Assembly: GCA_964414825.1 (NCBI GenBank)
Contig: CAYPZM010000004.1
Coordinates: 1 to 37,490 of the forward strand
DNA: 37,490 nucleotides
Direction of reading: 5' to 3'
Origin: an uncultured Cytophagia bacterium
GTDB taxonomy: Bacteria; Zhuqueibacterota; Zhuqueibacteria; Residuimicrobiales; Krinioviventaceae
In this document: one piece after another, positions 1-34,157 of the stretch
How the letters are laid out: each line of letters opens with the position of its first letter
How positions within the stretch are numbered: the first letter of the stretch is position 1
Translations under genes and position numbers: made by a program
Notes under the pieces: model-generated
Seen by the model: the letters and a program-made list of their open reading frames with translations, nothing else
Databases searched by the model: none
Told to the model about the DNA's origin: nothing

Positions 1-86
1 CTCTGGATTATGCTTCCGGCGTCTATTTCTATCGCCTGCAAACTACGGATCGCACAATTACCAAAAAGATGATGCTGCTCAAATAA
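1..86 (+). CDS. 3' end of a gene truncated by the window edge; T9SS-type C-terminal sorting domain tail
   Basis: Frame starting at nt 3 reads LDYASGVYFYRLQTTDRTITKKMMLLK, then TAA at 84-86. The tail pattern (SG.YFY.L.T....KKM.L.K) matches the C-termini of the 795..3311 and 3380..6343 proteins. A hairpin terminator follows at 154..184. Confidence 0.6.
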   Translation, partial: LDYASGVYFYRLQTTDRTITKKMMLLK

Positions 87-153
87 GGAAAAGCGTTTTG
101 TTTTTAGTACGATAAAGTTTTCTGCAAAAACCTACGCTTTGCCACAATGTATA

Positions 154-184
154 AACGGAGTATTCAAATGAATACTCCGTTTTT
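154..184 (+). terminator. Rho-independent terminator of the truncated upstream gene
   Basis: Perfect 12-bp stem AACGGAGTATTC (154-165) / GAATACTCCGTT (170-181) with 4-nt loop AAAT, running into a T tract (180-184). Confidence 0.75.
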
Positions 185-269
185 GTCATGCATATATCAT
201 AAACGCTCAAGAACACCGCAAAAACGCAGGCGAACAGCAATTCAAACAACACTACAATGGGAGCGCATC

Positions 270-494
270 TTGGAAGAATCCACAGAAATCTCATTTGTCA
301 TCACTAACAAGGGCAACGTTAAAATTGACATTTATGATCATTATGGACGCTGGGTCGAAACGCTTCTGAACAAAACGTTGAACCGAGGGCATCACAAACA
401 CACTTGGACACGGCCTCATCTAAGCTCCGGTGATTACACCGTACGCATCGAGACCCCGCAGTATACCGCCACTCGGAAAATGATCTTTCGTTAA
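270..494 (+). CDS. Orphan T9SS C-terminal-sorting-domain-only ORF (mini-gene or remnant of a decayed paralog)
   Basis: Part of track ORF 147..494. The last ~70 aa (EISFVITNKGNVKIDIYDHYGRWVETLLNKTLNRGHHKHTWTRPHLSSGDYTVRIETPQYTATRKMIFR) align with the sorting domains of the neighbouring proteins (TINFDLPSEQFVTLSIFDLRGRRVDVLLQE..AGHHSVTFDASQLASGIFFYKL). The ATG at 147 lies upstream of the 154..184 terminator. TTG 270, with GGGAG at 259-263 and a 6-nt spacer, is therefore the best supported start. There is no signal peptide and no cargo domain. Confidence 0.35.
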   Translation: MEESTEISFVITNKGNVKIDIYDHYGRWVETLLNKTLNRGHHKHTWTRPHLSSGDYTVRIETPQYTATRKMIFR

Positions 495-794: not shown

Positions 795-3311
795 ATGCGA
801 CGGTATCTCTTCTTCCTGCTGATCTGCGTGCCCGCTCTCAGCCTGACCTCCGACCTTCCGACGGAACTCGTATACATGTTTCCTGTTTCGGGATCCACTG
901 ATCATAATCCTCAGGTTACCCTCATTTTAAAAACCGAGCCCGAATCCGCGGATCGGTTAAGCCATGTGACCTTTGAGGTCAACGGCCAAAAAAGCGGTTT
1001 ACACAATGGCTCGGTACTCATCTCCAAAAACACTATTATTTTCAAGCCGACAATTCCATTTGCCCTCGGTGAAGGGGTTCATGTTAATGTTACCGGATTA
1101 TCAAAACCTTTAACATTTCACTTTTCCACAAGAGACCATATTGTGCCACATTCTTCTGTGGAACGGACAGCTTTTCCGGAGACCACGGCAAGCCAAACCG
1201 TTTCCTCCTCCAACAACGTGCGTTTGATTAATGGCGTTGCCGTGCCCAGCGATTTTCCCAACATCATCACAACCGTGCATGGCGAAACCGCACCGGGGCG
1301 CATCTTTTTTGCCCCTACCTTTTTTGATAGTGGCTCGCGCAGCAATTACGTGGTTATTTGCGAAAATGATGGCACGCCCTATTTTTATCGTAAATACGAA
1401 CGCTCCGGCCTCGGCAGTGCGGATTTTAAAGTGCAGGACAATGGTCTGCTCTCGCTTTACCGGTACATTCACGGTGAGCATGGCTTTCATATTGTAATGG
1501 ATGAGCATTTTGCAGAAGTGGATACGTTTCAGGCGGCGCACGGCTATCGAACCGATAATCACGAAATGCTGCTGCTGGATAATGGCCACGCGCTCCTCAT
1601 CGCCGAAGATGACCGGCGCATTGATATGAGCAAATTGGTCTCCGGCGGGAACACCAACGCAAATGTGGTTGGAAATCATATTCAAGAAGTGGATAGCGAG
1701 GGTAATGTGTTCTGGGAGTGGCGCTCCTGGGACCATTTGCATGTGTTGGATGTGGACAATATCAATTTAAAAGGCGGACACATCGATTATGTACACCTCA
1801 ATTCCATTGCCATCGATTACGATGGGCACTATGTGCTGTCGCTGCGCAACATGAGCGAGATGTGCAAAATTAATAGCCAAACCGGCGAATTTATCTGGCG
1901 ACTCGGCGGCGTGAACAATCAGTTCGACAGCGATGAGGAGCAGCTTTTGTCACATCAACATTGTGCCAAACCTGTGCCGGACCAGCCGGACTCCTATACC
2001 ATTTACGACAATGGCAACACGCGCAGCCCCAGCTTTACCCGAGCCGTGGAATACAAGCTGGATGTAAAAAACAAAACCGCCGAAAATGTCTGGCAATACC
2101 GGTATGACAAGGCCAATTTTCAAAGCATGATGGGCGGCGTGCAGCGGCTGCCGAACGGAAACACCTACATCGATTGGTCGGCCTGGCCGCCATTGCGCGG
2201 CTGCGAGGTGGACGCCGAGAACAACTTGGTGTTCGAGATTGAAGCCCAGGGCATTTCCAGCTATCGCTCGTATCGATTTAAGTGGGAAGGAGAGATGTTA
2301 AAGCCCTACCTTTTGGCCGAAAACACCTATGAAGGCGCGCGTCTCATTTTTAACAAATTTGGCGATACCGATGTGTTGCACTATATTGTTTATGGCGGCA
2401 CATCGCCCAACTCATTGGCACCCATGGATACGACTTCCAACACCTATGCTGAACTGACAAATTTGGAAAATGACACACGATATTATTTTAAAGTCTGTGC
2501 GGTGAATGGACAAGGCGAAAAAAGCGAGTTCTCGGATGAAGCGACCGTTTTTATCAAATATTCCGAGCCGGGCGAAAATTTGCTCGCTAACGGTGATTTT
2601 TCAGACGGGTCGAATAATTGGGACTTTGTATCACGCAACGGTGCACAATCCAACGGTATAGTCAAAGGTGGGATATTTTTTGTTGAAATCGAATCCGGGC
2701 GGGGTTCTGAAAGCATATATGACATTCAGGTGATCCAGGAGAGTTTTCCCATCATCAATGGCCGCACCTATGTGTTTGAATTTGAAGCATGGGCCGATGC
2801 CAACAAGGTGATCGAGCCGCGAATCGCTAAAAAGGATGGAGATTACGCGCTCTATTCCGGAACCACGGCCATGTCGATCAGTCGTCAACGCAAAACCTAT
2901 CGGTTTGAATTTGAGATGACACATCCATCCGATTATGAGGCGCGCGTGGTGTTCAACTGCGGCGGCTCGGACACGGATTGCTATTTTGACAATGTTTCGG
3001 TCAAAGAATTGCTGCCCAGCCATATCGAGACGGAACATTTGCAGCCAACCGAATTTGCTTTGGCGCAAAACTATCCAAATCCGTTCAACGCAACAACCAC
3101 CATAAACTTTGATTTGCCCTCCGAGCAATTTGTCACCTTGAGCATTTTTGACCTTCGCGGCCGCCGGGTCGACGTGCTTTTGCAAGAGACCAGGCAAGCT
3201 GGCCACCATTCCGTCACATTTGATGCCAGTCAACTCGCGAGCGGAATCTTTTTCTACAAGCTAAGAACGCACACCCAAACCCTGTTGAAAAAAATGATTT
3301 TAATCAAATAA
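795..3311 (+). CDS. Secreted multidomain ASST-family (arylsulfotransferase-like) beta-propeller protein: Ig-like N-domain, ASST propeller, FN3, CBM4_9-like module, T9SS sorting domain
   Basis: ATG 795 is preceded by AAGGAA (783-788). Signal peptide MRRYLFFLLICVPALSLTS. ASST-type motifs: DNHEMLLLDNGH, FWEWRSWDH, IDYVHLNSIAIDYDGHYVLSLRN, HQH..YTIYDNGN, RAVEYKLD..VWQY. FN3-like segment YYFKVCAVNGQGEKSEFS. CBM-like segment NLLANGDFSDGSNNW...CYFDNVSVKEL. C-terminal NYPNPFNATTTINFDL...GIFFYKL. The TTG at 708 given by the ORF track would add a non-signal leader. Confidence 0.85.
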   Translation: MRRYLFFLLICVPALSLTSDLPTELVYMFPVSGSTDHNPQVTLILKTEPESADRLSHVTFEVNGQKSGLHNGSVLISKNTIIFKPTIPFALGEGVHVNVTGLSKPLTFHFSTRDHIVPHSSVERTAFPETTASQTVSSSNNVRLINGVAVPSDFPNIITTVHGETAPGRIFFAPTFFDSGSRSNYVVICENDGTPYFYRKYERSGLGSADFKVQDNGLLSLYRYIHGEHGFHIVMDEHFAEVDTFQAAHGYRTDNHEMLLLDNGHALLIAEDDRRIDMSKLVSGGNTNANVVGNHIQEVDSEGNVFWEWRSWDHLHVLDVDNINLKGGHIDYVHLNSIAIDYDGHYVLSLRNMSEMCKINSQTGEFIWRLGGVNNQFDSDEEQLLSHQHCAKPVPDQPDSYTIYDNGNTRSPSFTRAVEYKLDVKNKTAENVWQYRYDKANFQSMMGGVQRLPNGNTYIDWSAWPPLRGCEVDAENNLVFEIEAQGISSYRSYRFKWEGEMLKPYLLAENTYEGARLIFNKFGDTDVLHYIVYGGTSPNSLAPMDTTSNTYAELTNLENDTRYYFKVCAVNGQGEKSEFSDEATVFIKYSEPGENLLANGDFSDGSNNWDFVSRNGAQSNGIVKGGIFFVEIESGRGSESIYDIQVIQESFPIINGRTYVFEFEAWADANKVIEPRIAKKDGDYALYSGTTAMSISRQRKTYRFEFEMTHPSDYEARVVFNCGGSDTDCYFDNVSVKELLPSHIETEHLQPTEFALAQNYPNPFNATTTINFDLPSEQFVTLSIFDLRGRRVDVLLQETRQAGHHSVTFDASQLASGIFFYKLRTHTQTLLKKMILIK

Positions 3312-3327
3312 AAGCTTATATTTATTC

Positions 3328-3359
3328 GTCGCACACTCAAGTGTGCGACATTTTATTTT
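3328..3359 (+). terminator. Rho-independent terminator after the first ASST-like gene
   Basis: Perfect 9-bp stem GTCGCACAC (3328-3336) / GTGTGCGAC (3341-3349), loop TCAA, tail ATTTTATTTT. Confidence 0.7.
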
Positions 3360-3379
3360 GACACGTTAAGGGATAGCGC

Positions 3380-6343
3380 ATGAAACCTTTGGTATTTTTG
3401 CTTTTGTTGACGTCTCAACTCGTCTCCGGCTATCATCCGGCAATCGATTACATTTTCCCACTGCCAGATAGTGAGCTCCTCACCCCAAAAACCACGATCA
3501 TTTTAAAACTTGGATCTGCTTATAACGACAAGGTGACCAATCTCAGTACGTTGATCCGAGTGAGCGGTGATGAGGGCAATGTAGAAGGTTCGGTATTTTG
3601 GGCAGCGGACGACCGCACTATCATATTCAAGCCGGCGCAGGATTTGAATGCCGACCAGTTTTATGATGTGAGGATTCAAACCAGCCAGGTTACAACTCGG
3701 GATTTTGCTTACACCTTTAAAACCGCTGCCCGAGGTGTCAATGATTTTGATGGCTTGCAAAAACACACAAATGCTTCTGATCGCAATACGAATGTGGGCA
3801 GCGTTCCGCCGGTTCGGCTCATCAATGGCGTGGCCGTTCCCAGTGATTTTCCAAATCTCCGAACGCAGCAATTTGGCGAAACCGCGCCGGGGAAAATCTT
3901 TTACGCTACCAACTATCCCCAGGAAGGCACGGGCAACTATCTCATTATTTGTGAAAACGACGGCACTCCCTATTTTTATCGCCGGTACGACGATGTGGTG
4001 CGCAGCGGCAACTTGACCGTCCACCCAACTGGCGATTTAACCGCGCACTTTTATTTCAAGTGGTTTTATGTGGTGTTGGATGAACATTTTGTCGAGGTCG
4101 ACACCATTCGCGTGGGCCATGGTTACGAAACGGATAACCATGAGCTGCAAATCCTGAAGAACGGCCACTCGTTGTTAATTGCGCGCGACCGAGCAAAGAT
4201 CGACATGAGTCGCATCGTCAGTGGCGGTCAGGGAGAAGCGACTGTCGAGGGTCACCACCTTCAAGAGCTGGATGCCGATCGTAATGTCATTTTCGAGTGG
4301 CGCAGTTGGGATCACTACTATATCCGCGATTCGTTCGTCAATTTAAAAGGCGGATTTATCGATTATGTGCACATGAATTCCATTGCCATCGATTATGACG
4401 GCCATTACGTCATCTCGGCGCGCGATTTGAACGAGATCACTAAAATCAATCGCACGACCGGAGAAATTATCTGGCGTTTGAATGGCAGAAACAACGAGTT
4501 TACATTCCTCAACGACCCGGATGAGTTTATTTATCAGCACGATTTTCGACCCTTGCCCGGCAAGCCAAACTATTACACGGTGTTTGATAATGGCCGCGGC
4601 CGCCATCCGCAGCATTCGCGCGCCGTTGAATACAAAATAGACCCTCAACAAAAAACTATAGAAAAGGTGTGGGAGTATCGGCATCAACCGGACTGGTATT
4701 CCTCATCCATGGGCAGCGCGCAACGGTTGCCCAATGGCAATACGCTCGTTGATTTTCCGGCTGGCGAGACGCGCGCTGTGGAAGTAAATCGCGCTGGAGA
4801 TGTGTTATTCGAGCTCATCAGTCAGGGGCATAGCAATTACCGCTGTCGGCGTTTTGAATGGTCCGGAAAAATGCAGCAGCCGTACCTCGTTACCGAGGAT
4901 TTGGGCACCACGGTGCGTCTCATTTTTAACAAGTTTGGCGATGCGGATGTCAAACAGTACAACATTTATTACGGCACGCGTCACAATCCCACACAACGGC
5001 TCGCAACCACATCACAAACCTATTACGATGCCACTCAGCTTGAGCCCAAAGTGTTGTATTATTTCCGCGTCACTGCTGTGGATGGGCAAAACAATGAAAG
5101 CGATTATTCCAATGAAGAGACCGGAACCATCCGCGTTCTGGCGCCGGGACAAAACGCGGTCAGAAACGGATCGTTTGACTCGGATGAGTTTTGGGATTTT
5201 CACACCACGAGTGGGCAGGCCGTCAGTCGCATTTCGGATGGACAGTATAAAATCATCGTCCATACCAACAGCGACATGGCGGAGGTGCGATTGACGCAAA
5301 GCGACATTATTGTGCTGCAAAATAAATCGTATGTATTTGAATTTGATGCTTATGCCAGCAGTCCGCGCGCCATTAATGCCAAAGTGGAATCTGCAACCTC
5401 GCCGCATATCAACTATGGCAAAATTGGCAATACCGCCATCACGACGCGGCTAAAACATTATCGTTTTCCATTCGAGATGCAGCACCCCACGGATACCGAG
5501 GCGCGGGTGATTTTTCATTGTGGCGGCGAACCGGGCGATATTTATATCGACAATGTCTCTCTCACCTATTCCGAGCCCGCCAGTGGCGACTCGGTGGTCA
5601 AAATCAACTTCCAGCCCCCGGATGTTGATGAACCATCCGATTATCTAGTCGATATCGGATTGGCATATGCAAACCGCGAAAGCGGATTGAACTATGGTTG
5701 GTTGGACGGCGATAACGACGAAACGCGTGTGCGAGAAGGGCAAAGCGATCTGCGCTACGCCACCTTGAACCACATGCAAAAAGATGACATTCCGCGCATT
5801 TGGGAACTAAAAGTGCCCAACGGAACCTATGAGGTATTTTTGGTGATGGGCGATGCCGGCTATACGGACCAGCTCAACTTTGTGCGGCTCGAAAATCTGG
5901 TGCTTTCTGATCCGGACGGCGAAGACTATTTTGACGAATATTCAGCATCGGTGCGTGTCGATGACGGCCGATTAACGATACAACCGACGTCTCAATCGAG
6001 CAACGCCAAGTTGTGTTTTATTGAAATCAGTGGATTAACGTTAAACGTCGAGCTTCCGGAATCAACAGAACAAATTCCGCAACATAGCGAGTTGTTTCCC
6101 AACTTTCCCAATCCCTTTAACAGCTCGACAACCATACGATTTGATTTGGCGCAGGAAGAATTTGTGAATCTGAGCGTATTCGACATTCGTGGCCGCCTTG
6201 TGACTACCCTGGTATCGCAAACAAAACGTTCCGGAAGGCATGCGATCTCTTTTGATGCATCGGATTTGGCCAGCGGCTTGTTTTTTTACAAACTGGAAAC
6301 CCCGTCCGTCTCTTTGGTGCAAAAAATGCTGGTGGTCAAATAG
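3380..6343 (+). CDS. Paralogous secreted ASST-family beta-propeller protein with an extra beta-sandwich (malectin/CBM-like) module before the T9SS sorting domain
   Basis: ATG 3380 with AAGGGA at 3368-3373. Signal peptide MKPLVFLLLLTSQLVSG. Collinear with the 795..3311 product: RLINGVAVPSDFPN, ICENDGTPYFYR, DNHELQILKNGH, FEWRSWDH, IDYVHMNSIAIDYDGHYVISARD, YQHDF..YTVFDNGRG, RAVEYKIDP..VWEY, an FN3 (YYFRVTAVDGQNNESDYS) and a CBM-like module (..IYIDNVSLTY). It adds ~150 aa (VVKINFQPPD...LCFIEISG), then NFPNPFNSSTTIRFDL...GLFFYKL. Confidence 0.85.
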   Translation: MKPLVFLLLLTSQLVSGYHPAIDYIFPLPDSELLTPKTTIILKLGSAYNDKVTNLSTLIRVSGDEGNVEGSVFWAADDRTIIFKPAQDLNADQFYDVRIQTSQVTTRDFAYTFKTAARGVNDFDGLQKHTNASDRNTNVGSVPPVRLINGVAVPSDFPNLRTQQFGETAPGKIFYATNYPQEGTGNYLIICENDGTPYFYRRYDDVVRSGNLTVHPTGDLTAHFYFKWFYVVLDEHFVEVDTIRVGHGYETDNHELQILKNGHSLLIARDRAKIDMSRIVSGGQGEATVEGHHLQELDADRNVIFEWRSWDHYYIRDSFVNLKGGFIDYVHMNSIAIDYDGHYVISARDLNEITKINRTTGEIIWRLNGRNNEFTFLNDPDEFIYQHDFRPLPGKPNYYTVFDNGRGRHPQHSRAVEYKIDPQQKTIEKVWEYRHQPDWYSSSMGSAQRLPNGNTLVDFPAGETRAVEVNRAGDVLFELISQGHSNYRCRRFEWSGKMQQPYLVTEDLGTTVRLIFNKFGDADVKQYNIYYGTRHNPTQRLATTSQTYYDATQLEPKVLYYFRVTAVDGQNNESDYSNEETGTIRVLAPGQNAVRNGSFDSDEFWDFHTTSGQAVSRISDGQYKIIVHTNSDMAEVRLTQSDIIVLQNKSYVFEFDAYASSPRAINAKVESATSPHINYGKIGNTAITTRLKHYRFPFEMQHPTDTEARVIFHCGGEPGDIYIDNVSLTYSEPASGDSVVKINFQPPDVDEPSDYLVDIGLAYANRESGLNYGWLDGDNDETRVREGQSDLRYATLNHMQKDDIPRIWELKVPNGTYEVFLVMGDAGYTDQLNFVRLENLVLSDPDGEDYFDEYSASVRVDDGRLTIQPTSQSSNAKLCFIEISGLTLNVELPESTEQIPQHSELFPNFPNPFNSSTTIRFDLAQEEFVNLSVFDIRGRLVTTLVSQTKRSGRHAISFDASDLASGLFFYKLETPSVSLVQKMLVVK

Positions 6344-6371
6344 GGCGATTGACCCGCTCCTGATTTTTTTT
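6334..6371 (+). terminator. Possible weak terminator overlapping the stop of the second ASST-like gene
   Basis: 6-bp stem GGTCAA (6334-6339) / TTGACC (6349-6354) with a 9-nt loop. A run of eight T at 6364-6371 follows, but it is separated from the stem by 9 nt, so this is non-canonical. Confidence 0.3.
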
Positions 6372-6745
6372 GTACACCTTGAGAGACCGTCGAAAAAGTC
6401 ATAGTAGTTCCTTAACCAGGGGTCACTTTAGAATATAGAAATTGCCTGAGTAGTCAGATAAATATAGATTTACAACCAATTCCTGCTGTCTGGCGTGACC
6501 CCACGCAGTCATTGGCGGCGGCATTAAACAACTTGGAAGGCAAGACAATAATGTCAATTTTGTGTTAAAATAGCTTTTTTTCAACCAATCTAAAAGATAA
6601 AATACCAGCAGTCACAAAAAGCGACTTTAACATTCCCTTCACATTGCCTTAATTTGCATAGTTGCTTAAACTTTACGATCTTGAGCAAATTTAGCATTTC
6701 TCCCCCCTTTACAATATCGAGACGTGCAAAACGCCCTCTGAATTG

Positions 6746-8269
6746 ATGCTGCGCTGGAGATACAAGGTGTATGATTTTGATGTTGCGGTAATAGGAAGCG
6801 GAGCCGGTGGCGGTACCATTGCTTACGCCCTGGCACAGTCCGGAAAAAGCGTGATTTTGCTTGAACGAGGTTCTCACCCCAAAGCCCCGGAGACGCGCGA
6901 TGAAATTCGCACCATGATCGACATGGAGTCGTATGACGATCGCTCGATCTCGTTTAAAAACAAACAGTACAGATTTTACAACGGTGCCGTTCCCGGCGGC
7001 AGTACAGCCCTGTACGGTGCCGCGCTGGTGCGGCCAGCTCGCGAAGATTTTACGCCGGGACGATTCTATGGCGACAACATACCACGAGCCATTTGGGACT
7101 GGCCCATTTCGTACGAGAATTTGGAACCGTTTTACGATCAGGCCGAAGCCTTGTACGGCGTATGTGGCGAAAATGGTCGACCTTTAAGAGCTGTCAGCAG
7201 GCCTCGTAATGGTTATGGCTATCCGGTGCCGCCTTTCAAGCCCATCAATTTAAAATTAGCGCAGAGCATTAGCCATTTTGGGTTTTCGCCATACCATTTG
7301 CCATTGGCCATCAATTTTGAGCAATGTTTGCACTGTCCAGATTGCCCCGGATTTTTATGTCCCAATTTTTCCCGCCTTTCTTCCTGGGATGTGTGTATTC
7401 AGCCGGCCCTCAAACGTTGTGGACTGGTATTCCGCACCAAAACCGATGTGGAAAAACTGCTGGTAAACCGCAAAGGAGATGTCCACGAGCTTGCATATAA
7501 AAATTGTCAGGATGATCAGCTAAAAACCATTTCCGCCAAAATTATTATTGTTGCGGCAGGCGCCATTGGCAGCGCTGTGGTGCTCTTGAAATCCAATTTA
7601 AAGTTTAATAATGAGCTATTGGGAAGAAATTACATGTTTCACGCCGGTGCGCTGGTGGGTGGATTGTTTCGACAGGACCTCGGTACGCGCAGCACTTTTG
7701 TGAAACAACTGGCATTCAGCGACCTTTATTTTGGCAGTGAAACATTTCCGCATAAAATGGGCTACGCACAAAGCGTTCCGACACTTGGCCCGTATACGTT
7801 TGCACGAAAGCTTGGGCTGCCCGTGTCCCCTAATTTCAGCAACATCTTTTTGCGGCGAATGTTGCTGTTTATGGGAACGGTCGAAGATCTGCCGCTTGTG
7901 AGCAATCGAATTGAATTGAACCAAAAGGGGGACATTCGGCTTTTGCATAAATTTCACAAATACGATTTGTATCGATCCAAATATTATTTGAAAATATTGA
8001 AAAAAATAATGCAGCGGGCAGGCGCAAAAGTGGTTGTGGGTGTAACGAGCGATAAAAACATCGGACACACAGCACATCAAGTTGGCACGGCAAGATTCGG
8101 CGACGATCCCGCAACCTCGGTTCTCGATCCGATGTGTCGGTTGCACAATTATCCCAATGTGTTTGTTGTGGATGGTAGTTTTATGCCAACGTCCTTGGGG
8201 GTAAGCCCGGCGCTGACGATTATGGCGAACGCCTTGCGAGTTGCGGACTTTATTAACAAGGAGTATTAA
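6746..8269 (+). CDS. GMC-family FAD-dependent oxidoreductase with an internal Cys-rich motif
   Basis: N-terminal Rossmann FAD motif YDFDVAVIGSGAGGGTIAYALA..ILLERG. C-terminal GMC signature HQVGTARFGDDPATSVLD...VVDGSFMPTSLGVSPALTIMANA. Start is uncertain: ATG 6746, TTG 6743, or GTG 6767, which has GGAGA at 6756-6760 and a 6-nt spacer. Confidence 0.85.
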   Translation: MLRWRYKVYDFDVAVIGSGAGGGTIAYALAQSGKSVILLERGSHPKAPETRDEIRTMIDMESYDDRSISFKNKQYRFYNGAVPGGSTALYGAALVRPAREDFTPGRFYGDNIPRAIWDWPISYENLEPFYDQAEALYGVCGENGRPLRAVSRPRNGYGYPVPPFKPINLKLAQSISHFGFSPYHLPLAINFEQCLHCPDCPGFLCPNFSRLSSWDVCIQPALKRCGLVFRTKTDVEKLLVNRKGDVHELAYKNCQDDQLKTISAKIIIVAAGAIGSAVVLLKSNLKFNNELLGRNYMFHAGALVGGLFRQDLGTRSTFVKQLAFSDLYFGSETFPHKMGYAQSVPTLGPYTFARKLGLPVSPNFSNIFLRRMLLFMGTVEDLPLVSNRIELNQKGDIRLLHKFHKYDLYRSKYYLKILKKIMQRAGAKVVVGVTSDKNIGHTAHQVGTARFGDDPATSVLDPMCRLHNYPNVFVVDGSFMPTSLGVSPALTIMANALRVADFINKEY

Positions 8270-8270
8270 C

Positions 8271-9056
8271 ATGAAAGTTGTGATTACCGGCATTAGCGGC
8301 ACGCTCGGCCAGGCACTCGGCAAAGAATACATTTCCCAAGGATGGCATGTGGTGGGTGTGTCGCGCAAGGCGAATCTGGAAGGAGATTTTTTTAGCGAGT
8401 TGATCACATCAAATCAGGATTCGATTGAGGATGCAAAAAGACTGTTGGCAACCGATCCGGACCTGCTTATTTTAAATGCCGGACAAATTGAAACAGACAT
8501 TGGCGAGTTCGGCGAGCCGCTGTCCCACATCGCAAAATCCATGAACACGGTAAATTATGAATGGCCGGCACTCGTGACGTTAGCCGCGGCGGAGCAACCG
8601 CGCAACAAACCTCTCGAAATCGTCGCGATAGGCTCCATTGCCGATGGCAGTCCCTCCTGTTTTGGGCCAGTGTATCACGCTGGAAAAATTGCATTGCATT
8701 ATTTTTGGACCGGGACCGGTCCGATCTTGTATCACAAAACCAACAAGATGGTACGTTTGCGTCTCTATCGGCCGGGGGCCATTAAAGGGCCACTGGCCTG
8801 GGCACCGGTAAACCGATTAAATGAAAAGGGATATCATGTTCGCGCCAAACGGGTGGATAACGCGCCACCGGCTGAGACAGTGGCGCGTCGTATGGTCAAT
8901 TGGATCAAATCCGGAAAACAATGGGTCGGCACCTATGATGAACCCATCAGCTTTCGTATGCTCAAATTTATGCACGCGCTGTCGCCCAACTTGTATTACA
9001 AGATCCAGTTGCTAGCCTGGCGCAAAGCCAGCAAGTTTGTACAAAATGGCAAATAA
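8271..9056 (+). CDS. Short-chain dehydrogenase/reductase (SDR) family oxidoreductase
   Basis: ATG 8271 with AAGGAG at 8258-8263, 1 nt after the GMC stop (TAA 8267-8269). Glycine motif VVITGISGTLG. Catalytic YxxxK present as YHAGK. The track ORF start at 8241 lies inside the GMC gene. Confidence 0.8.
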   Translation: MKVVITGISGTLGQALGKEYISQGWHVVGVSRKANLEGDFFSELITSNQDSIEDAKRLLATDPDLLILNAGQIETDIGEFGEPLSHIAKSMNTVNYEWPALVTLAAAEQPRNKPLEIVAIGSIADGSPSCFGPVYHAGKIALHYFWTGTGPILYHKTNKMVRLRLYRPGAIKGPLAWAPVNRLNEKGYHVRAKRVDNAPPAETVARRMVNWIKSGKQWVGTYDEPISFRMLKFMHALSPNLYYKIQLLAWRKASKFVQNGK

Positions 9057-10317: not shown

Positions 10318-13194
10318 CTACAGGACGGATATTTTCATTCCAGCCGCATCGACATCAAAATCAAAAAAGCGGGCGCGAGAGTTGGGAGAATCTTGTTCAA
10401 GAATGTTTCGGATGCGTTTCGCGGCAGTTTTGTCTTTGGGCACCATGAATAAAAATCCACCGCCACCGGCGCCCAATAATTTGGCGCCTAACAAATAGTC
10501 ATCAACACGCGATAAAATCGCTTCGATGTCATCGGTAGTCTGCCCTTGATCCAACCTCTTGTTCAACTGCCAGGCAGAACGAATGTTTTCGCCAAATGTT
10601 TCGATACGGCGGTGATCCAAATCGGTTTTCATTTCTTGCGCCAATGCAGCCAATTGTTGCAGCGTTTCCACGGCCTCGGCATCTCGTTTTAAATAACGTC
10701 CGACCACCTTGCGCAAGAGATTTTTTGCCATCCGGCGATAGCCGGTATAATATAATAAAAATTGTTCCGAGACATCACGTTGTGGCTGTTTTAAATGTGT
10801 CCACGCCAAAGTGGGGGTTTGATCGATTCCCGCCTTTGTGGTGATGAGCTTGACGCCTCCAGCCACGCCACCGATTTGGTCCTGCCATCCACCGCCCGTG
10901 GTCATCAATTGTTCGAGGTTGCTCGTGCGGGCATAGAGTTCATCGCGCGGCATATCGTGCCCCAGAATGCGCGCTAGAGTAGCAATGAGCCCGGCACCCA
11001 AAATGCTCGATGTCCCCAATCCCGAACCGGACGGCAGTGCACTAAATAACGTCAAATCGATCCCCCCTCCCAGGCGCTGCAAAAACTTTTTTAGGGTGCC
11101 GTCGGCTTCCAAGGGCACCAGGCCGGCCGCATATAACGCGGCTTTGGGAAGCGACAGCCAATCCGCCGGATTGGTAAAATTTCGCAATTCTTCGATGGAA
11201 GTAATTTCCACGCGTTGACCGAGGTCGATAGAGTTTATGCTAATCACAAAATCGGGCCTAATTTTCCCCACAACTTGAATGGGATATTGCCCATTTAGTG
11301 TGACCGAGGCGTTCAAAACGCAACCGCCGAGGTCGAGACAAATGGGCGGCGTATCGGTCCAACCGCCGGCAAAATCAAGGCGAGCGGGCAAGAGCGTCCA
11401 TACAACTTCATCCGAGCGGATGTGTAGCCGGTTGTCCTGGCGTTCCACCGAGTGCTGCAAGCCCAGATTTACGGCATTCCGAATTGACAAAAAGGCGCGT
11501 GTATAGAACGTTTCCGCGTTCGCTTCTTTTCCATCCGCTTTTGCCAGCTCTGCAAGCCACAGCTCCAACTTGGCGCGCTCTTTAAAATCGACGCGTTCTG
11601 TTTCAGCCAAAAGAGTTTGACGGATGGTTTCCACGTCCGCAGGAGTGCGAATGAGATCTTGCACATCGCGAAACGAAAACGAGTCCGATTTTATTTCTTG
11701 AGACAAATTATACAGCCGAAATTTCCGCAGCAAGTTCGCACGTTGCTGCAGCATACGATTTTGATCTGTATGCTGCAAGATATGTTGAATTGATTGGCGA
11801 TTTGCACGACGCCACAGCGCCAGGTCTCCCCTATGTTGCAAGCACAGCACGGCGTCGACAGCGTCTTGTGGCAATTCTGCGCAGGGGAAAAGCTGCGCTG
11901 TCCACAACTCTTGGATATCTTCTCTTGTCCACAACTCTTTGGACGTGATTCCAAGACTCTCAAAAACGTCGTACATGCGCGTGTTGAGAAAAAGCGGCTC
12001 ATAAGAGGCTTTAAAATGATCCAGAATGCCGTAAAGAATTGCGGCCCAGGTTCCGTCTTGTTGCGGTAGCAAAAGCAAACAGTTACCCTTTTTGAGAAAC
12101 AGAGGCCGAGTCAATTCTGTGAGCCCGGTTAGGAGATTATTTCCATCCAGCTTGAGATCCGCCGAAATCGAACAGCCTTCGATGAGTGACGGCGAGGTTG
12201 CGACAACCGAAACATTGTCGATCATGGAATTGAAAATCCAGGACGATTTCAATTCCGGAAAACGTTCGGCATTGGAGCGTACGCCATTTTGAAACCGATA
12301 TTGCACCGAAGCATGGGTGAGCGAATAGAAATGCCGCAAGAACTCGGCGCTGCGACCGACATGAAAAAAGCCGCAATAGGGCAAACAATTGGCGTACAAA
12401 TCAATGGCCTGCAAGAGACTGGCATCGGGGATATCCAATTTGCCGTGAACCGCGTGCACAAGTTCGTAATAGAGGTTGTAATTGAGCTCGCCCTTTTCAA
12501 ATGACCGCAACAATGTTTTGCACTGCAAAAACGCCTCGACCGCATCTGGAGCCAGATTGAGGATGCCGGTATCAATCCAAATGCGCTGCGAGTCGAGCGC
12601 CCCGGCCGACTCTAGTTCTTGCAGATTCGGCTTTTGCAACACATCACTCACAGGTTTTAAATGCTGTTCGCCATTCTCCACGACATACACGCCAAAATAT
12701 TGACCTTGTTGCGGGTCCTCCGGATAGGCCACGCCTGTAATCCCATGTGGCGAAAATTCAATAAAGCCGGGCTCAAAATTGAGCAGAACATCTCCGCTGG
12801 CAACAATAACTTGACCGGATTCAAGCGCGGGCAATTGCGCATAATTCTCCAGCATGAGGTCAAACAGGGTCAAATTTGCAGGAGTCGGTAGCGGCGCAAA
12901 CAACTTGCCGACCGCCGAGTAAGCCAGCAAACGGCGACTGTCACCGCCGCTGTGCAGCATCAACATACGCTTTTGAAGTAGCTCTGCGCCGTACTTTTGA
13001 TACAATATATGAAGCACATACAAGGTGCTACCTCCCGAACCAATGCGTTGCCCGCCGGGATCGGAGATGACCAGGAATTCCGTTTCGGGCAGCAGTCCGC
13101 GTTGGCGACGCCACTCTAGTTGCGTTTCATAACCTTTGGCTTGGTGTTCATTAGAAGCAGTTAAAATGCAAATATCAAAAGGTATATGGGGCAT
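10318..13194 (-). CDS. fkp: Bifunctional L-fucokinase / L-fucose-1-phosphate guanylyltransferase
   Basis: 958 aa. The N-terminal pyrophosphorylase part (ILTASNEHQAKGYETQL, GSGGSTLYVL, MLHSGGDSRRLLAYSAVGKLFAPLP) resembles Bacteroides Fkp and eukaryotic FPGT. The C-terminal part is a GHMP kinase (LPSGSGLGTSSILGAGLIATLA; LLGAGGGGFLFMV). Confidence 0.85.
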   Translation of the reverse strand: MPHIPFDICILTASNEHQAKGYETQLEWRRQRGLLPETEFLVISDPGGQRIGSGGSTLYVLHILYQKYGAELLQKRMLMLHSGGDSRRLLAYSAVGKLFAPLPTPANLTLFDLMLENYAQLPALESGQVIVASGDVLLNFEPGFIEFSPHGITGVAYPEDPQQGQYFGVYVVENGEQHLKPVSDVLQKPNLQELESAGALDSQRIWIDTGILNLAPDAVEAFLQCKTLLRSFEKGELNYNLYYELVHAVHGKLDIPDASLLQAIDLYANCLPYCGFFHVGRSAEFLRHFYSLTHASVQYRFQNGVRSNAERFPELKSSWIFNSMIDNVSVVATSPSLIEGCSISADLKLDGNNLLTGLTELTRPLFLKKGNCLLLLPQQDGTWAAILYGILDHFKASYEPLFLNTRMYDVFESLGITSKELWTREDIQELWTAQLFPCAELPQDAVDAVLCLQHRGDLALWRRANRQSIQHILQHTDQNRMLQQRANLLRKFRLYNLSQEIKSDSFSFRDVQDLIRTPADVETIRQTLLAETERVDFKERAKLELWLAELAKADGKEANAETFYTRAFLSIRNAVNLGLQHSVERQDNRLHIRSDEVVWTLLPARLDFAGGWTDTPPICLDLGGCVLNASVTLNGQYPIQVVGKIRPDFVISINSIDLGQRVEITSIEELRNFTNPADWLSLPKAALYAAGLVPLEADGTLKKFLQRLGGGIDLTLFSALPSGSGLGTSSILGAGLIATLARILGHDMPRDELYARTSNLEQLMTTGGGWQDQIGGVAGGVKLITTKAGIDQTPTLAWTHLKQPQRDVSEQFLLYYTGYRRMAKNLLRKVVGRYLKRDAEAVETLQQLAALAQEMKTDLDHRRIETFGENIRSAWQLNKRLDQGQTTDDIEAILSRVDDYLLGAKLLGAGGGGFLFMVPKDKTAAKRIRNILEQDSPNSRARFFDFDVDAAGMKISVL

Positions 13195-18564: not shown

Positions 18565-19627
18565 AAGCCCGAATGCTATTGATGTGCTGTTGGACGGCAC
18601 GCAGAACCCGAGCCGTGCTAATTTTTTTTAAACAAGTGATATGCCAGCAGCTTGTTTGTTTGCATAATTCGCAGTCGACCGATTCTCGAAGAACGGTATG
18701 GCCTTCTCCGAACGGATACCACTTGCCCGGAATATCGCGTGCGGAAAATATCGCCACACAAGGCGTACCCACTGCGGCAGCGAGGTGCATAGTTCCAGTA
18801 TCGTTTCCCACATACAGATCACAGCGTCGCAGCAGCACGGCCGACTCGCGCACGCTTAATGCACCGGCGGCGTTCAAGCCTCTCCCCCATCGTTGTACAA
18901 GCGTGTTTCCGCATTCTGCATCTTCGTTGCCTCCCAGGATAATTGGGAAAATAGAATGTTCGTTCATCAGACGTTTGCCAACTTTATAAAATCGGCTCAA
19001 CGGCCACTGTTTGGACTGCATTTTTGAGCCGGGGCCAAAACCAATAATGAGAGTATCTTTAGGCAAGCCGCCAGCCTGACGCAGCCATTTTTTCACACGT
19101 GTTTGCTCTTGCTCTCCCAATTGCAAATCCATAGATGGATCTCGGGTGGAAATTCTATCCAGCTTGAGGCGATATAAGATAGCTTGATATTCTGGTGTAT
19201 CTTCGGAATGGCCGCTATTCACGCGCTCGAATCCATGAAATCCCCACGGATTTTTAATTCCTAAAAGTTTAAAGTAGATGTAATCTCTGCGAATCTGGAT
19301 TTCAGTACGATTGGACGGCACAAGATAAGCCACCGCATTAAAACGCTTCAGCATTAAAAATGGAAGCAGCAGGAGCATGGCACCAAAATGGACAATCTTG
19401 GGGCCTTGAGCGAGTTTGTAAAAAAAGAAACAGCGTGTGAAAAAATTTGTATTTTTAAATATTTCCGTAGAGGGAGTAAAGGATTGCCCGACAACTTTAT
19501 CACTTAACAAATAAAAAGAGGCTTGAGGAAACGCCTCGCGCAGCGCCCACAGTGACGGCACGACCATTAACGTATCGCCAATGTGACCGATGTGAAAGAT
19601 CAATATCCGTTTGGGGCGGTCGCTCAA
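18557..19627 (-). CDS. Glycosyltransferase family 9 (heptosyltransferase-like)
   Basis: RILIFHIGHIGDTLMVVPSLWALREAFPQASFYLLSD and CDLYVGNDTGTMHLAAAVGTPCVAIFS are classic GT9 motifs. The preferred start is TTG 19627, with AAGGAG 8 nt upstream and overlapping the sulfotransferase stop (TTGA). The track start TTG 19648 is the alternative. Confidence 0.8.
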   Translation of the reverse strand: MSDRPKRILIFHIGHIGDTLMVVPSLWALREAFPQASFYLLSDKVVGQSFTPSTEIFKNTNFFTRCFFFYKLAQGPKIVHFGAMLLLLPFLMLKRFNAVAYLVPSNRTEIQIRRDYIYFKLLGIKNPWGFHGFERVNSGHSEDTPEYQAILYRLKLDRISTRDPSMDLQLGEQEQTRVKKWLRQAGGLPKDTLIIGFGPGSKMQSKQWPLSRFYKVGKRLMNEHSIFPIILGGNEDAECGNTLVQRWGRGLNAAGALSVRESAVLLRRCDLYVGNDTGTMHLAAAVGTPCVAIFSARDIPGKWYPFGEGHTVLRESVDCELCKQTSCWHITCLKKISTARVLRAVQQHINSIRAYG

Positions 19628-20412
19628 TCTGCCAGCTCCTTGTGCCAACCTTCTTTCGCATAGCTCAATCGAACCAATGTCTCACCCGCGAGTTGATGAA
19701 AAAGCTCCGCACCCTCCCGGTCAAAATAGTTCTGCCAATCCCCAATGATGCCTTTGCGTTTGTTGGAAGTCACATCTTCTTTTCCTTTTTGCCGACGGGT
19801 TTGTTTTTCAAAGGAAAATTTTCTCACCGTATATTGCAGCAGCTCGTCATCAATAGGCTCGGAGGTTAATTTTTGGAGCAACGAGGTAAGGGCAGCCGCA
19901 GCATCTCGATTAAAATCTTCATAGCGAACGAGAATCACATTTTTGTTAAAGGCCCATTCATTTACATGATCTGGCCAATTCTGCCGACAACCTACAGGAT
20001 GTTTAAACCATTCAGCGAGAAATTCCGAAAAATTGGTTTTTGGATCATCCTTTGTTTTGAGCAAAGACGGGAACCGTTTTGCATAGTACGAGTCGGACGA
20101 AATACGTTTTAAAGCATAAAACATCATGGACACTGCGACATCGCGACCATCTCGAACGACGTAAATCGGTTTCGAATAGCGGCGATCAAATTTCCAGTGA
20201 TTGTGCAATATGCTTTGACAGGCAACGGGCAACAGGCTGTTTTTGGGAAAGGGGATTTGCAAATAATCAGACAAAACATGGGCGATCCAGGTGCCGCCGG
20301 AGCGCGGGTATTCGGTTACGTAATAAAAGGGAAACGTTTCGCCGTAGTGCAGCGCCAAAATGCGAGTGCCATGATTGGAGACACGTTTTAACTGCAACTG
20401 GAGTCTAGACAT
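19624..20412 (-). CDS. PAPS-dependent sulfotransferase (Sulfotransfer_1 type)
   Basis: All three canonical signatures are present: the 5'-phosphosulfate loop YPRSGGTW, the 3'-phosphate motif VVRDGRDVAVS, and the C-terminal RKGIIGDWQNYF. ATG 20412 overlaps the upstream stop as ATGTCTAG. Confidence 0.85.
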   Translation of the reverse strand: MSRLQLQLKRVSNHGTRILALHYGETFPFYYVTEYPRSGGTWIAHVLSDYLQIPFPKNSLLPVACQSILHNHWKFDRRYSKPIYVVRDGRDVAVSMMFYALKRISSDSYYAKRFPSLLKTKDDPKTNFSEFLAEWFKHPVGCRQNWPDHVNEWAFNKNVILVRYEDFNRDAAAALTSLLQKLTSEPIDDELLQYTVRKFSFEKQTRRQKGKEDVTSNKRKGIIGDWQNYFDREGAELFHQLAGETLVRLSYAKEGWHKELAD

Positions 20413-21913
20413 CGGTCACATATTTCTTTTTGAGCGCGCCATTAAACACTTTGAAGGATTGAATAAACAAGAGAAGCAAAATTACCAAAACCGGAAACTC
20501 GCGCAAAAGCCGATACACATATTGCGTATGCGTCCATTGTTGGATGTTTATGAGCAGCGGCACAAGAAAAAATATTGCATACACATTCTGGTAGAGATTC
20601 GAGCCGATTTTTTTCAATATTAAAAACAAAAGAATAAAAATATATAGCGGAATAAATAGCACGCCAATCCAGCCTAATCCGGCGTAGGCATGACCTAGTA
20701 GCGGCACGGTGGGAAAACCGATGACGCCATATCGCCGTAGCCCCAGCTCCCAGGTGATCTGATCGGCTTGCGAAATGGTGGACTTTTGCGGATAGAGAAT
20801 TCCGGGCAGTAATTTTTCATAACCATCCACTATTACGCTGGCGCCCAAGGTGTGTTGATCCTCGACACTATCGACAATCAAATCGGTGTGTTGTACTGTG
20901 GCAAAGCGATCAATAAAAAACAGGCTATTGCCAAAATAGGCGTATTCATAGCTGGTTCGCTGGGTGCTCAGCAATTTATTCAAATAATTTTCCAGTTGGG
21001 ACGGTTGAAGCACTTCGCGCCAGTTATCGCGCAAAAACTCGATTCGCTTATCAAAGCTCAAAAACCATAATTGCGTTCGAAAGGTGTGCACAATGGGGCC
21101 AAACACAAAAAAGGCAAACAACACAAACACGACAAAGGTAATAATTTGTGATTTGGTAAAATAGCGTCGAAAATAAAAAGAGGCCAAATAATAGCTGAGA
21201 AACGTGTACCCCAACTCCAGCTTGCGGCTCTCAACAATCCCAATGAGAATACCAACACCCAACAACACAATAATCCAAATATTGATGCTTTTTTTGCCTT
21301 TCGTAGAAAGGATTACGTGCGCCGTCGCTGCAATTATGGACATGTAAAAAATCGGCACCATCGACGCAAACCCACCAAAACTCACATCTTCGCTGTAGTA
21401 AATATCTCTTCGATTGATCAAAAACTTTTGGTTCAAAAGCCAGAAGAAGATTCCAAACACAAAGCAGATAATGGCCAGGTATTTCAAAAAGTCCAGGTTC
21501 TGAGTCGGCTTGAATAACGGTCTTCCAACAGGAGTCAATTTCACAATATACAACGCAAGCAGCAGCTCAATTGCGCCCAAAAGCACAATGATAAAACTTG
21601 TAGTCGGTTGAAACAAATTACTTTCAAGCGGCTGCAAAAGTGCTGTTTTTAAAACCATAGCAAACGTGACCGTATTAAAAACAAAAAAGAATCCCACAAT
21701 GCTCAGGCTATCACGATAGCCGCCATTGAGGAGCACAATCACACTTATGGTTACACTCAAGAGCGCGGTTAAAACAATAAACGGATTGGCGCCAAAGGCA
21801 AGCTGGATAAAAAAGATGCAAAACACCACCCCCATAAGCAGCAGCGTGTTTTTGCGATCCTGGCTTTGCAGTCGTTCGAGCGAATTCCATGCTTTTATAG
21901 TACGAGTTGTCAC
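20405..21913 (-). CDS. Polytopic membrane protein, probable Wzy-type EPS polymerase (O-antigen ligase-like)
   Basis: 502 aa with ~12 hydrophobic segments and one large hydrophilic loop (RIEFLRDNW...ITWELGLRRYG). AT-rich. Sits immediately after wzx. Assigned by position and topology only. GTG start at 21913. Confidence 0.55.
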   Translation of the reverse strand: MTTRTIKAWNSLERLQSQDRKNTLLLMGVVFCIFFIQLAFGANPFIVLTALLSVTISVIVLLNGGYRDSLSIVGFFFVFNTVTFAMVLKTALLQPLESNLFQPTTSFIIVLLGAIELLLALYIVKLTPVGRPLFKPTQNLDFLKYLAIICFVFGIFFWLLNQKFLINRRDIYYSEDVSFGGFASMVPIFYMSIIAATAHVILSTKGKKSINIWIIVLLGVGILIGIVESRKLELGYTFLSYYLASFYFRRYFTKSQIITFVVFVLFAFFVFGPIVHTFRTQLWFLSFDKRIEFLRDNWREVLQPSQLENYLNKLLSTQRTSYEYAYFGNSLFFIDRFATVQHTDLIVDSVEDQHTLGASVIVDGYEKLLPGILYPQKSTISQADQITWELGLRRYGVIGFPTVPLLGHAYAGLGWIGVLFIPLYIFILLFLILKKIGSNLYQNVYAIFFLVPLLINIQQWTHTQYVYRLLREFPVLVILLLLFIQSFKVFNGALKKKYVTDV

Positions 21914-34156: not shown

Positions 34157-34157
34157 G

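Follow-up and report, generated by a model that had tools for sequence, protein, structure and literature searches.

Two adjacent genes, A and B, on a 37,490-nucleotide stretch of DNA from an uncultured Cytophagia bacterium of the GTDB lineage Zhuqueibacterota (GenBank assembly GCA_964414825.1, contig CAYPZM010000004.1, positions 1 to 37,490 of the forward strand; hereafter the window) encode tandem paralogs belonging to a large uncharacterised branch of the aryl sulfate sulfotransferase (ASST) superfamily, whose enzymes work independently of 3'-phosphoadenosine 5'-phosphosulfate (PAPS). Their nearest characterised relatives are of the Cpz4/LipB type. This assignment rests on the architecture of the two proteins, the conservation of their catalytic residues, their structural kinship with Cpz4 and with carbohydrate-binding modules (CBM) of family 4, and the synteny found in relatives. 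Tentatively, and somewhat short of calling it probable, we favour the view that A and B transfer sulfuryl groups outside the cell while tethered to a glycan, using a donor that is derived from PAPS and exported.

A and B are intact, neighbouring open reading frames (ORFs) on the + strand, with the coordinates given by an earlier reader who worked from the sequence alone (the original prediction). That reader had described two collinear paralogs composed of a signal peptide, an Ig-like domain, an ASST propeller, an FN3 domain, a CBM4_9-like jelly-roll and a sorting tail of the type IX secretion system (T9SS), in this order, which the present analysis supports. Pfam gathering scores were exceeded in both proteins for ASST, fn3, CBM_4_9 and Por_Secre_tail (cut-offs of 24.2 bits for PF05935, 27 for PF14269 and 25.9 for PF02018), as was the NCBIfam cut-off of 23 bits for TIGR04183, the T9SS type A tail (scores in Table 1). 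The N-terminal Ig-like domain gave a Big_5 match in B only, below the threshold of 23.6 bits, and appears as a confident beta-sandwich in the AlphaFold2 (AF2) model of B. This model, built with 29 homologs, is all-beta and has a mean predicted local distance difference test (pLDDT) value of 85.8. Signal peptides were recognised by eye in the N-terminal sequences MRRYLFFLLICVPALSL of A and MKPLVFLLLLTSQLVSG of B. In pairwise alignment the two paralogs are collinear throughout; 42% of the residues are identical over 759 aa, rising to 53% in the C-terminal 93 aa. The length of 987 aa originally given for B was correct, while A has 838 aa rather than 839 when counted from its ATG; the start was placed at this ATG (795) and not at the upstream TTG (708) because orthologs align from residue 1-5. 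The common architecture had also been recognised correctly, with the exception of an extra domain of about 150 aa (aa 739-886) between the CBM4 and the tail of B, which had been overlooked and which accounts for the difference in length. No PAPS-binding domain of the Sulfotransfer_1/2/3 type was detected in A or B in the Pfam scan.

The best profile match to the propeller of the family was Cpz4 (PDB 9kf4/9kf6), with E-values between 1e-52 and 1e-56, compared with 1e-8 to 1e-14 for E. coli AssT (3elq) with the same family profile. Searching with the AF2 model of B, Foldseek likewise retrieved Cpz4 (9kf6; E 1.4e-28, TM-score 0.71 on the target) and E. coli ASST (3elq; E 6e-16), so that the propeller scores as ASST both against the Pfam models and by structure, as the earlier reader had anticipated. 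The PDB titles name 9kf4 and 9kf6 as the Streptomyces caprazamycin sulfotransferase Cpz4 and its reaction intermediate; a literature search found no paper citing 9KF4. Between the 9kf4 sequence and the aryl sulfotransferase of Streptomyces sp. SANK 60405 identity is 82%, and between B and the latter 28%. In the profile alignment the unit formed by the propeller and the FN3-like domain of A and B matches Cpz4 up to the C-terminus of the latter. On every sequence-level criterion A and B are members of the ASST superfamily (PF05935/PF14269, EC 2.8.2.22-type), and within it they side with Cpz4/LipB and not with E. coli AssT.

Profile alignment placed His252, His356 and Arg374 of E. coli ASST on equivalent residues of both proteins (Table 1), and set Q435-H436, which includes the sulfuryl-accepting His436, opposite the invariant QH of the family (B H387, A H389). 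The Cpz4 motifs ADLH, DYVHINS, SGR and WQHD align exactly with those of the family, WQHD falling on B H387 and A H389. These are the histidines proposed in the original prediction as catalytic candidates (in HQHCAK of A and YQHDF of B), and all the motifs it quoted (DNHE, EWRSWDH, IDYVHxNSIAIDYDGHYV, QH, DNG and RAVEYK) are present. The conservation count covers two alignments, one of 29 and one of 19 sequences (48 in total), both including B. In B numbering, H254 and H387 are conserved in 48/48, R348 in 47/48 and H331 in 46/48; N333, D403, G405 and R414 are invariant, and N404 and E417 are each altered in one sequence. That these residues are so strictly kept while overall identity is 40-60% speaks for a functional ASST-type active site, which is what we predict for the propellers of A and B.

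The CBM4 module of the family matched by profile that of Thermotoga maritima Lam16A (CBM4-2, 1gui; E 1.8e-14), together with the CBM4s of C. thermocellum and the CBM4-2 of R. marinus Xyn10A. In Foldseek the module of B superposed on 1gui with a TM-score of 0.75 and a root-mean-square deviation of 3.4 Å. The region initially labelled CBM4_9-like is therefore a true CBM4 relative, and glycan binding is predicted for it in both proteins. The additional domain of B had no sequence match in Pfam, NCBIfam or PDB. It is modelled as a jelly-roll (pLDDT 90.5), and Foldseek matched it best to the N-domain of YxiM (2o14; E 6.8e-7), followed by beta-glucuronidase-2 (GUS-2) of Bacteroides uniformis (7e-6, covering about 165 of its ~830 residues) and by CBM6 and CBM35 modules, a porphyran CBM (8xmz, 3e-4) and human malectin (9ikp, 6.7e-4). 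Since the best structural matches are carbohydrate-binding or CBM-like, B is predicted to carry two modules of glycan-binding type. Five relatives (P0020, P0029, P0033, P0049 and P0052) have a DUF1349 (PF07081) concanavalin-like module at the position of the malectin/CBM6-like module of B, which suggests module swapping at this place.

From these features we infer how A and B are secreted, what they catalyse and which donor and acceptor they use, as follows. A and B would be exported by means of their signal peptides, and the sorting domain would hand them over to the T9SS, which would deliver them to the cell surface or the medium. The propeller would most likely work by the ASST ping-pong reaction, a small activated aryl or enol sulfate giving up its sulfuryl group to B His387 or A His389, from which it would move on to a hydroxyl group. 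The CBM4, together with the second, malectin/CBM6-like module in B, would hold the enzyme on a glycan, which makes a carbohydrate polymer the most likely acceptor, be it the exopolysaccharide (EPS) of the cell itself or an environmental polysaccharide. Because extracellular enzymes have no access to PAPS, a carrier sulfated from PAPS inside the cell and then exported would probably serve as donor, as in the caprazamycin relay formed by the ketosynthase Cpz6, the PAPS sulfotransferase Cpz8 and the ASST Cpz4. According to PMC4257720 (citing Tang 2013), the PAPS-dependent Cpz8 sulfates triketide pyrones, the ketosynthase product, and Cpz4 passes the sulfate on to the antibiotic.

Carbohydrate hydroxyls are not new to this chemistry: Cpz4 and LipB place sulfate on the sugar moiety of liponucleoside antibiotics, and the ASSTs of D. 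hafniense accept sugars weakly (PMC11576661, PMC13426309). This corrects the initial description of characterised ASSTs as periplasmic enzymes shuttling sulfate between phenols only. The accompanying statement that an activity directed to polysaccharide had not been described for the family was also too strong if taken to cover carbohydrate acceptors in general, because small-molecule sugars are known ASST acceptors; what does stand of its novelty is a secreted, polysaccharide-tethered ASST, which has not been described.

The fusion of an ASST propeller to a CBM is widespread. More than 1,000 proteins were found with the ASST plus CBM_4_9 (plus Por tail) architecture, an exhaustive HMMER scan with the propeller gave 1,463 clusters at 50% identity (E<=1e-30), and 353 stretches from GTDB species representatives encode relatives. 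These occur mostly in metagenome-assembled genomes (MAGs) labelled candidate division KSB1, Ignavibacteria/Melioribacteraceae, Calditrichia, Latescibacterota and Bacteroidales, with more than 10 family loci in some single MAGs labelled KSB1. Members from MAGs labelled Planctomycetes retain the Ig-propeller-FN3-CBM order without the T9SS tail, which indicates that the propeller-CBM fusion is a stable unit. Homologs of this kind, of 741-753 aa, at loci L012, L013 and L082 come from MAGs labelled Pirellulales or Sedimentisphaerales; the absence of the tail would fit phyla without T9SS. Three other relatives, P0241 (1453 aa), P0246 (1564 aa) and P0341 (1308 aa), contain two ASST propellers per polypeptide. 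In databases the family goes under the names "aryl-sulfate sulfotransferase", "carbohydrate binding domain-containing protein" or "hypothetical protein". Close relatives of A are rare, as only three orthologs with more than 55% identity were found among 5.8 billion proteins.

Gene neighbourhoods were clustered for 959 ORFs from 83 related loci and the window. ASST-like genes are usually in tandem (142 copies in 84 sources) and have no universal partner. Among 135 ORFs immediately next to 72 family loci, a Pfam census counted Por tails 14 times, beta-ketoacyl synthase III (KAS III) and PAPS-type sulfotransferases 4 times each, and GT1_3 glycosyltransferases 3 times; KAS III, the PAPS sulfotransferase and GT1_3 were the only recurrent enzymes. 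The census bears on the possibility that the propeller has lost sulfotransfer or never had it, being a binding or adhesin scaffold or catalysing another reaction, for example taking sulfate off sulfated glycans by hydrolysis or in a lyase-type manner during their degradation. An expansion to over 10 copies in a genome, combined with a CBM and a T9SS tail, is indeed typical of degradative exoenzymes; however, no glycoside hydrolase (GH), polysaccharide lyase (PL), sulfatase or SusC/D was recurrent among the 135 neighbours, and a degradative role, as in polysaccharide utilization loci, was rejected as the main hypothesis. A change of chemistry is also at odds with the ASST catalytic residues, which are strictly conserved, and with the thermodynamically uphill nature of transfer from a sugar sulfate to a phenol, and we regard this explanation as very improbable.

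In all three loci with A orthologs (L003, L008 and L025), the ortholog lies directly downstream of genes for a TPR protein, DUF1302, MMPL, ATP sulfurylase, adenosine 5'-phosphosulfate (APS) kinase and GT1_3; a LolA-like/DUF1329 gene is present only in L025 among them. The B ortholog follows that of A in L003 and L008, and the contig of L025 ends inside the next ASST-like gene. PorV is encoded after the ASST-like array in L003, and adjoins orthologous or paralogous arrays in L003, L044, L073 and L083. In four paralogous arrays, from four MAGs (L022, L024, L030 and L071), genes for a FabH-like KAS III and a Sulfotransfer_3 protein interrupt the run of ASST-like genes, at distances of roughly 4-150 nt apart from one overlap of ORF calls; L022 and L024 carry the same TPR-DUF1302-MMPL block after the array. 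The Sulfotransfer_3 protein has an N-terminal transmembrane helix, a predicted membrane anchor, and a PRSGTT PAPS loop. The ketosynthase was considered as a DarB/pyrone synthase or a type III polyketide synthase (PKS), an identity rejected on its NCBIfam scores (243 bits for FabH, with a cut-off of 249, and only 31-46 bits for DarB/StlD).

Such a "sulfation island" around ASST-like arrays recurs in eight loci: L003 (1-22970), L008, L025, L022, L024, L030, L071 and L077. Its parts are TPR, DUF1302, MMPL, in some loci LolA-like/DUF1329, ATP sulfurylase, APS kinase, a glycosyltransferase of the MJ1255/VC2487 family, the FabH-like KAS III with the membrane-anchored Sulfotransfer_3, a SurA-like protein of 506 aa, PorV, and a protein of ~1,180 aa with a PorZ-like C-terminus. 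L030 also encodes a YCF48-like BNR protein with a Por tail. The islands near orthologs and paralogs of A and B hold the same logical parts as the Cpz relay (PAPS synthesis, PAPS sulfotransferase, ketosynthase and ASST-type transferases), plus an exporter and a secretion system. These parts could be assembled into an extracellular relay in bacteria of the FCB group, running from PAPS made by the ATP sulfurylase and APS kinase of the island, through the membrane sulfotransferase and a ketosynthase-derived carrier exported by MMPL/DUF1302/LolA-like proteins, to arrays of T9SS-displayed, CBM-tethered ASST-type enzymes, A and B among them, that sulfate polysaccharides, although in this complete form we consider it doubtful.

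The same genes could be read in terms of lipids, the acceptor or donor being a cell-envelope (glyco)lipid that the island makes and exports and whose sulfation is remodelled by the ASST-like enzymes at the surface. The mycobacterial sulfolipid-1 locus provides an analogy. The combination of FabH-like ketosynthase, anchored PAPS sulfotransferase, glycosyltransferase and MMPL/RND, DUF1302 and LolA-like/DUF1329 proteins would suit such a product, and the DUF1302/DUF1329/BNR/RND gene set has been proposed as an exporter of a cell-envelope component (bioRxiv 10.1101/2020.07.04.188060). However, in terms of group-transfer potential alkyl and sugar sulfates are generally poor sulfuryl donors for ASST chemistry, a CBM4 of the type that binds soluble glycans is not expected for a lipid substrate, and none of the island genes is in the window, all of which makes a lipid quite unlikely in our opinion.

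Returning to glycan-tethered sulfuryl transfer with an exported donor, a number of points weigh against it. In the HMMER alignment the putative equivalence of His436, which comes from sequence alignment, is one residue off, in an ungapped stretch. About 90% of the family loci have no sulfation neighbour, and the three A-ortholog loci may share one ancestral arrangement, hence not being independent. The resemblance of the ketosynthase to ordinary FabH leaves an aryl or enol sulfate product speculative. In the window itself, the relay genes (PAPS sulfotransferase and ketosynthase) are not beside A and B, and upstream of A there is a T9SS cargo tail and an orphan tail remnant instead of the ATP sulfurylase, APS kinase and glycosyltransferase genes, the contig ending 0.8 kb upstream. 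A search of RNA runs found none containing the sequence. Finally, CBM-like modules on T9SS cargo could merely anchor the enzyme to the matrix of its own cell, the substrate being small phenols.

This last point leads to the possibility that A and B are secreted ASSTs for small phenols, moving sulfate between dissolved aryl sulfates and phenols in mat or sediment and so serving detoxification, signalling or the processing of organic matter, with their CBMs as tethers to matrix or detrital particles. All biochemically characterised ASSTs accept phenols, including Cpz4, which transfers sulfate to phenol from p-nitrophenyl sulfate (pNPS) or 4-methylumbelliferyl sulfate (MUS) (PMC13426309). The conserved catalytic residues agree with such a role, most family loci have no sulfation or glycan partner, and the window sequence is present in microbial mat and sediment metagenomes. 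Nevertheless, a phenol substrate would leave unexplained why the propeller is constantly joined to one or two CBM-type modules in over 1,000 homologs from several phyla, and why PAPS sulfotransferase, ketosynthase and PAPS-synthesis genes are associated in operon-like fashion with orthologs and paralogs; moreover, the closest characterised relative prefers a sugar hydroxyl. On balance we find small phenols an unlikely answer.

Table 1. Positions in the window of A, B, their domains and candidate active-site residues
Feature	Position	Strand	Remarks
ORF A	795..3311	+	838 aa from ATG; signal peptide, Ig-like, ASST propeller, FN3, CBM4, T9SS C-terminal domain
A, N-terminal Ig-like beta-sandwich	858..1142	+	aa ~22-116; limits carried over from B via alignment and AF2 model of B
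A, ASST-type six-bladed propeller	1206..2303	+	aa ~138-503; PF05935 105.7 bits, PF14269 70.9 bits
A, His256 codon (DNHE)	1560..1562	+	Counterpart of E. coli ASST His252
A, His334 codon (DYVHLNS)	1794..1796	+	Counterpart of E. coli ASST His356
A, Arg351 codon	1845..1847	+	Counterpart of E. coli ASST Arg374
A, His389 codon (SHQHC)	1959..1961	+	Candidate sulfuryl-accepting histidine (E. coli ASST His436)
A, FN3	2304..2564	+	aa ~504-590; PF00041 26.0 bits
A, CBM4 module	2571..3011	+	aa ~593-739; PF02018 36.2 bits; profile matches 1gui, 3p6b, 3k4z
A, T9SS type A sorting domain	3048..3308	+	aa ~752-838; PF18962 47.9 bits, TIGR04183 44.1 bits
Terminator-like hairpin and T-run just 3' of A	3328..3349	+	9 pairs, 6 G-C; consensus match only
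ORF B	3380..6343	+	987 aa; architecture of A plus second CBM-like module
B, Ig-like domain	3437..3733	+	aa 20-118, then disordered linker aa 119-140; Big_5 21.6 bits; AF2 pLDDT >90
B, ASST-type propeller	3800..4879	+	aa 141-500; PF05935 91.6 bits, PF14269 88.8 bits; Foldseek Cpz4 9kf6, 3elq
B, His254 codon	4139..4141	+	Counterpart of E. coli ASST His252
B, His331 codon	4370..4372	+	Counterpart of E. coli ASST His356
B, Arg348 codon	4421..4423	+	Counterpart of E. coli ASST Arg374
B, His387 codon (IYQHD)	4538..4540	+	Candidate sulfuryl-accepting histidine
B, FN3	4880..5140	+	aa 501-587; PF00041 26.5 bits; AF2 model
B, CBM4 module	5147..5572	+	aa 590-731; PF02018 46.4 bits; 1gui by profile and Foldseek
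B, second CBM-like jelly-roll	5594..6037	+	aa 739-886; malectin/CBM6/CBM35-like; Foldseek on AF2 model
B, T9SS type A sorting domain	6077..6340	+	aa 900-987; PF18962 42.3 bits, TIGR04183 36.2 bits
Weak terminator-like hairpin 3' of B	6343..6359	+	Consensus match only

With respect to the surroundings of A and B, nt 1-83 (+) belong to another T9SS cargo gene, of which the contig start leaves only the final ~27 codons, ending in GVYFYRLQTTDRTITKKMMLLK followed by the stop codon. A 115-aa ORF follows at 147-494 (+), the C-terminal ~65 aa of which are an orphan Por sorting tail, and which is probably what is left of a cargo gene that has decayed. Further members of the tandem array may lie beyond the upstream edge of the window; exact-match and protein-guided scans of metagenome contigs found no extension in that direction. 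Components of the T9SS machinery were not found in the 37-kb window. Directly 3' of B, at 6743-9056 (+), there are genes for a GMC-family FAD oxidoreductase (508 aa) and an overlapping short-chain dehydrogenase/reductase (SDR, 271 aa). They were rejected as operon partners of B, since neither is present again at any related locus and B is followed by a terminator-like hairpin.

Downstream of these two genes lies a Wzx/Wzy-type EPS locus of roughly 20 kb (~9478-30320, -). It encodes a GNAT protein, the bifunctional fucokinase/GDP-fucose pyrophosphorylase FKP (10318-13194), Wzi, the initiating transferase Bac_transf, two GT4 and one GT9 glycosyltransferases, a PAPS-type Sulfotransfer_1 (19624-20412), Wzx, a beta-helix protein, a NusG/UpxY-like protein, and Wzc-like and Wza-like SLBB proteins. 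A 502-aa protein without Pfam match (20405-21913) is possibly Wzy, and a DASS/CitMHS anion transporter with two TrkA_C domains (24758-26533) possibly serves sulfate uptake. The GC content of the window drops to 0.41 at 20-24 kb. From this gene content the organism is predicted to make a sulfated, fucose-containing EPS a few kb from A and B. As a conserved partner of A and B the EPS locus was rejected, since its genes cluster with none from the 83 related loci, apart from GT9 at a single locus; as the adjacency recurs nowhere else, we give it little weight, as weak support specific to the window. A ComB-type 2-phosphosulfolactate phosphatase (PF04029, 219 bits) is encoded at 33425-34213 (-), between FtsK and the glycine-cleavage T protein; it is a further organosulfur-related gene with no evident link with A and B.

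To our knowledge, all known polysaccharide sulfation uses PAPS and takes place inside a cell compartment. Sugar-directed ASST chemistry is already known for small molecules, and relatives of A and B share operons with genes for sulfate activation, which points to an as yet undescribed route by which glycans might be sulfated extracellularly. If true, this would be PAPS-independent sulfation of polysaccharides in the extracellular matrix, which is not known to have been described in any organism, and a secreted, glycan-tethered ASST with an exported donor would represent a new route to sulfated matrices; sulfated polysaccharides are relevant to the cycling of carbon and sulfur in mats and sediments. 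A further gain would be PAPS-free biocatalysts with built-in glycan targeting, for which the ASST of D. hafniense is now being engineered (PMC13426309). Given the size of the family (1,463 clusters, and more than 10 paralogs in single KSB1-labelled MAGs), one characterised member would annotate thousands of genes that at present bear only the names "aryl-sulfate sulfotransferase" or "hypothetical". A 2026 review of the field covers only ASSTs directed to phenols and small molecules and names E. coli AssT as the sole resolved crystal structure, and our literature search found no paper linking ASSTs with T9SS, CBMs or KSB1.

Among known systems, Cpz4 and LipB, from the caprazamycin and A-90289 clusters of Streptomyces, are the closest to A and B, with which they share the propeller followed by an FN3-like C-terminal unit and the DxH, DYVHxNS, SxR and QHD motifs. 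The PAPS-dependent relay of Cpz4 is paralleled by the PAPS sulfotransferase and ketosynthase inside paralogous arrays of the family. They differ in being proteins of ~470-510 aa without Ig, CBM or T9SS domains, encoded in antibiotic gene clusters and acting on a small liponucleoside acceptor, and identity is only ~28%; in addition, the ketosynthase of the arrays is FabH-like and not a type III PKS, and the relay genes are absent from the window. AssT of E. coli CFT073 (3elq), the founding PAPS-independent enzyme, and the ASSTs of gut bacteria and Desulfitobacterium also belong to the PF05935 superfamily and are exported from the cytoplasm. E. coli AssT has the same N-terminal beta-sandwich followed by a six-bladed propeller, with counterparts of His252, His356, Arg374 and His436. 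In contrast to A and B, however, it is periplasmic, dimeric and phenol-acting and has no FN3, CBM or T9SS tail, and it is far more distant than Cpz4, being alignable only around three motif blocks. The PAPS-dependent polysaccharide sulfotransferases (PF00685/PF03567), including the one encoded in the EPS locus of the window, have the same end product as that proposed here, sulfate esters on glycans. Their fold and mechanism are unrelated to those of A and B, and they need PAPS and work in the cytoplasm or Golgi, whereas A and B are predicted to be secreted; A and B are thus not members of that group, though they may do a similar job. Lastly, the CBM4s of glucanases and xylanases (1gui, C. thermocellum CbhA/CelK and R. 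marinus Xyn10A CBM4-2) are jelly-rolls homologous to those of A and B, with the difference that they sit on glycoside hydrolases, while here the module is carried by a transferase of the ASST family.

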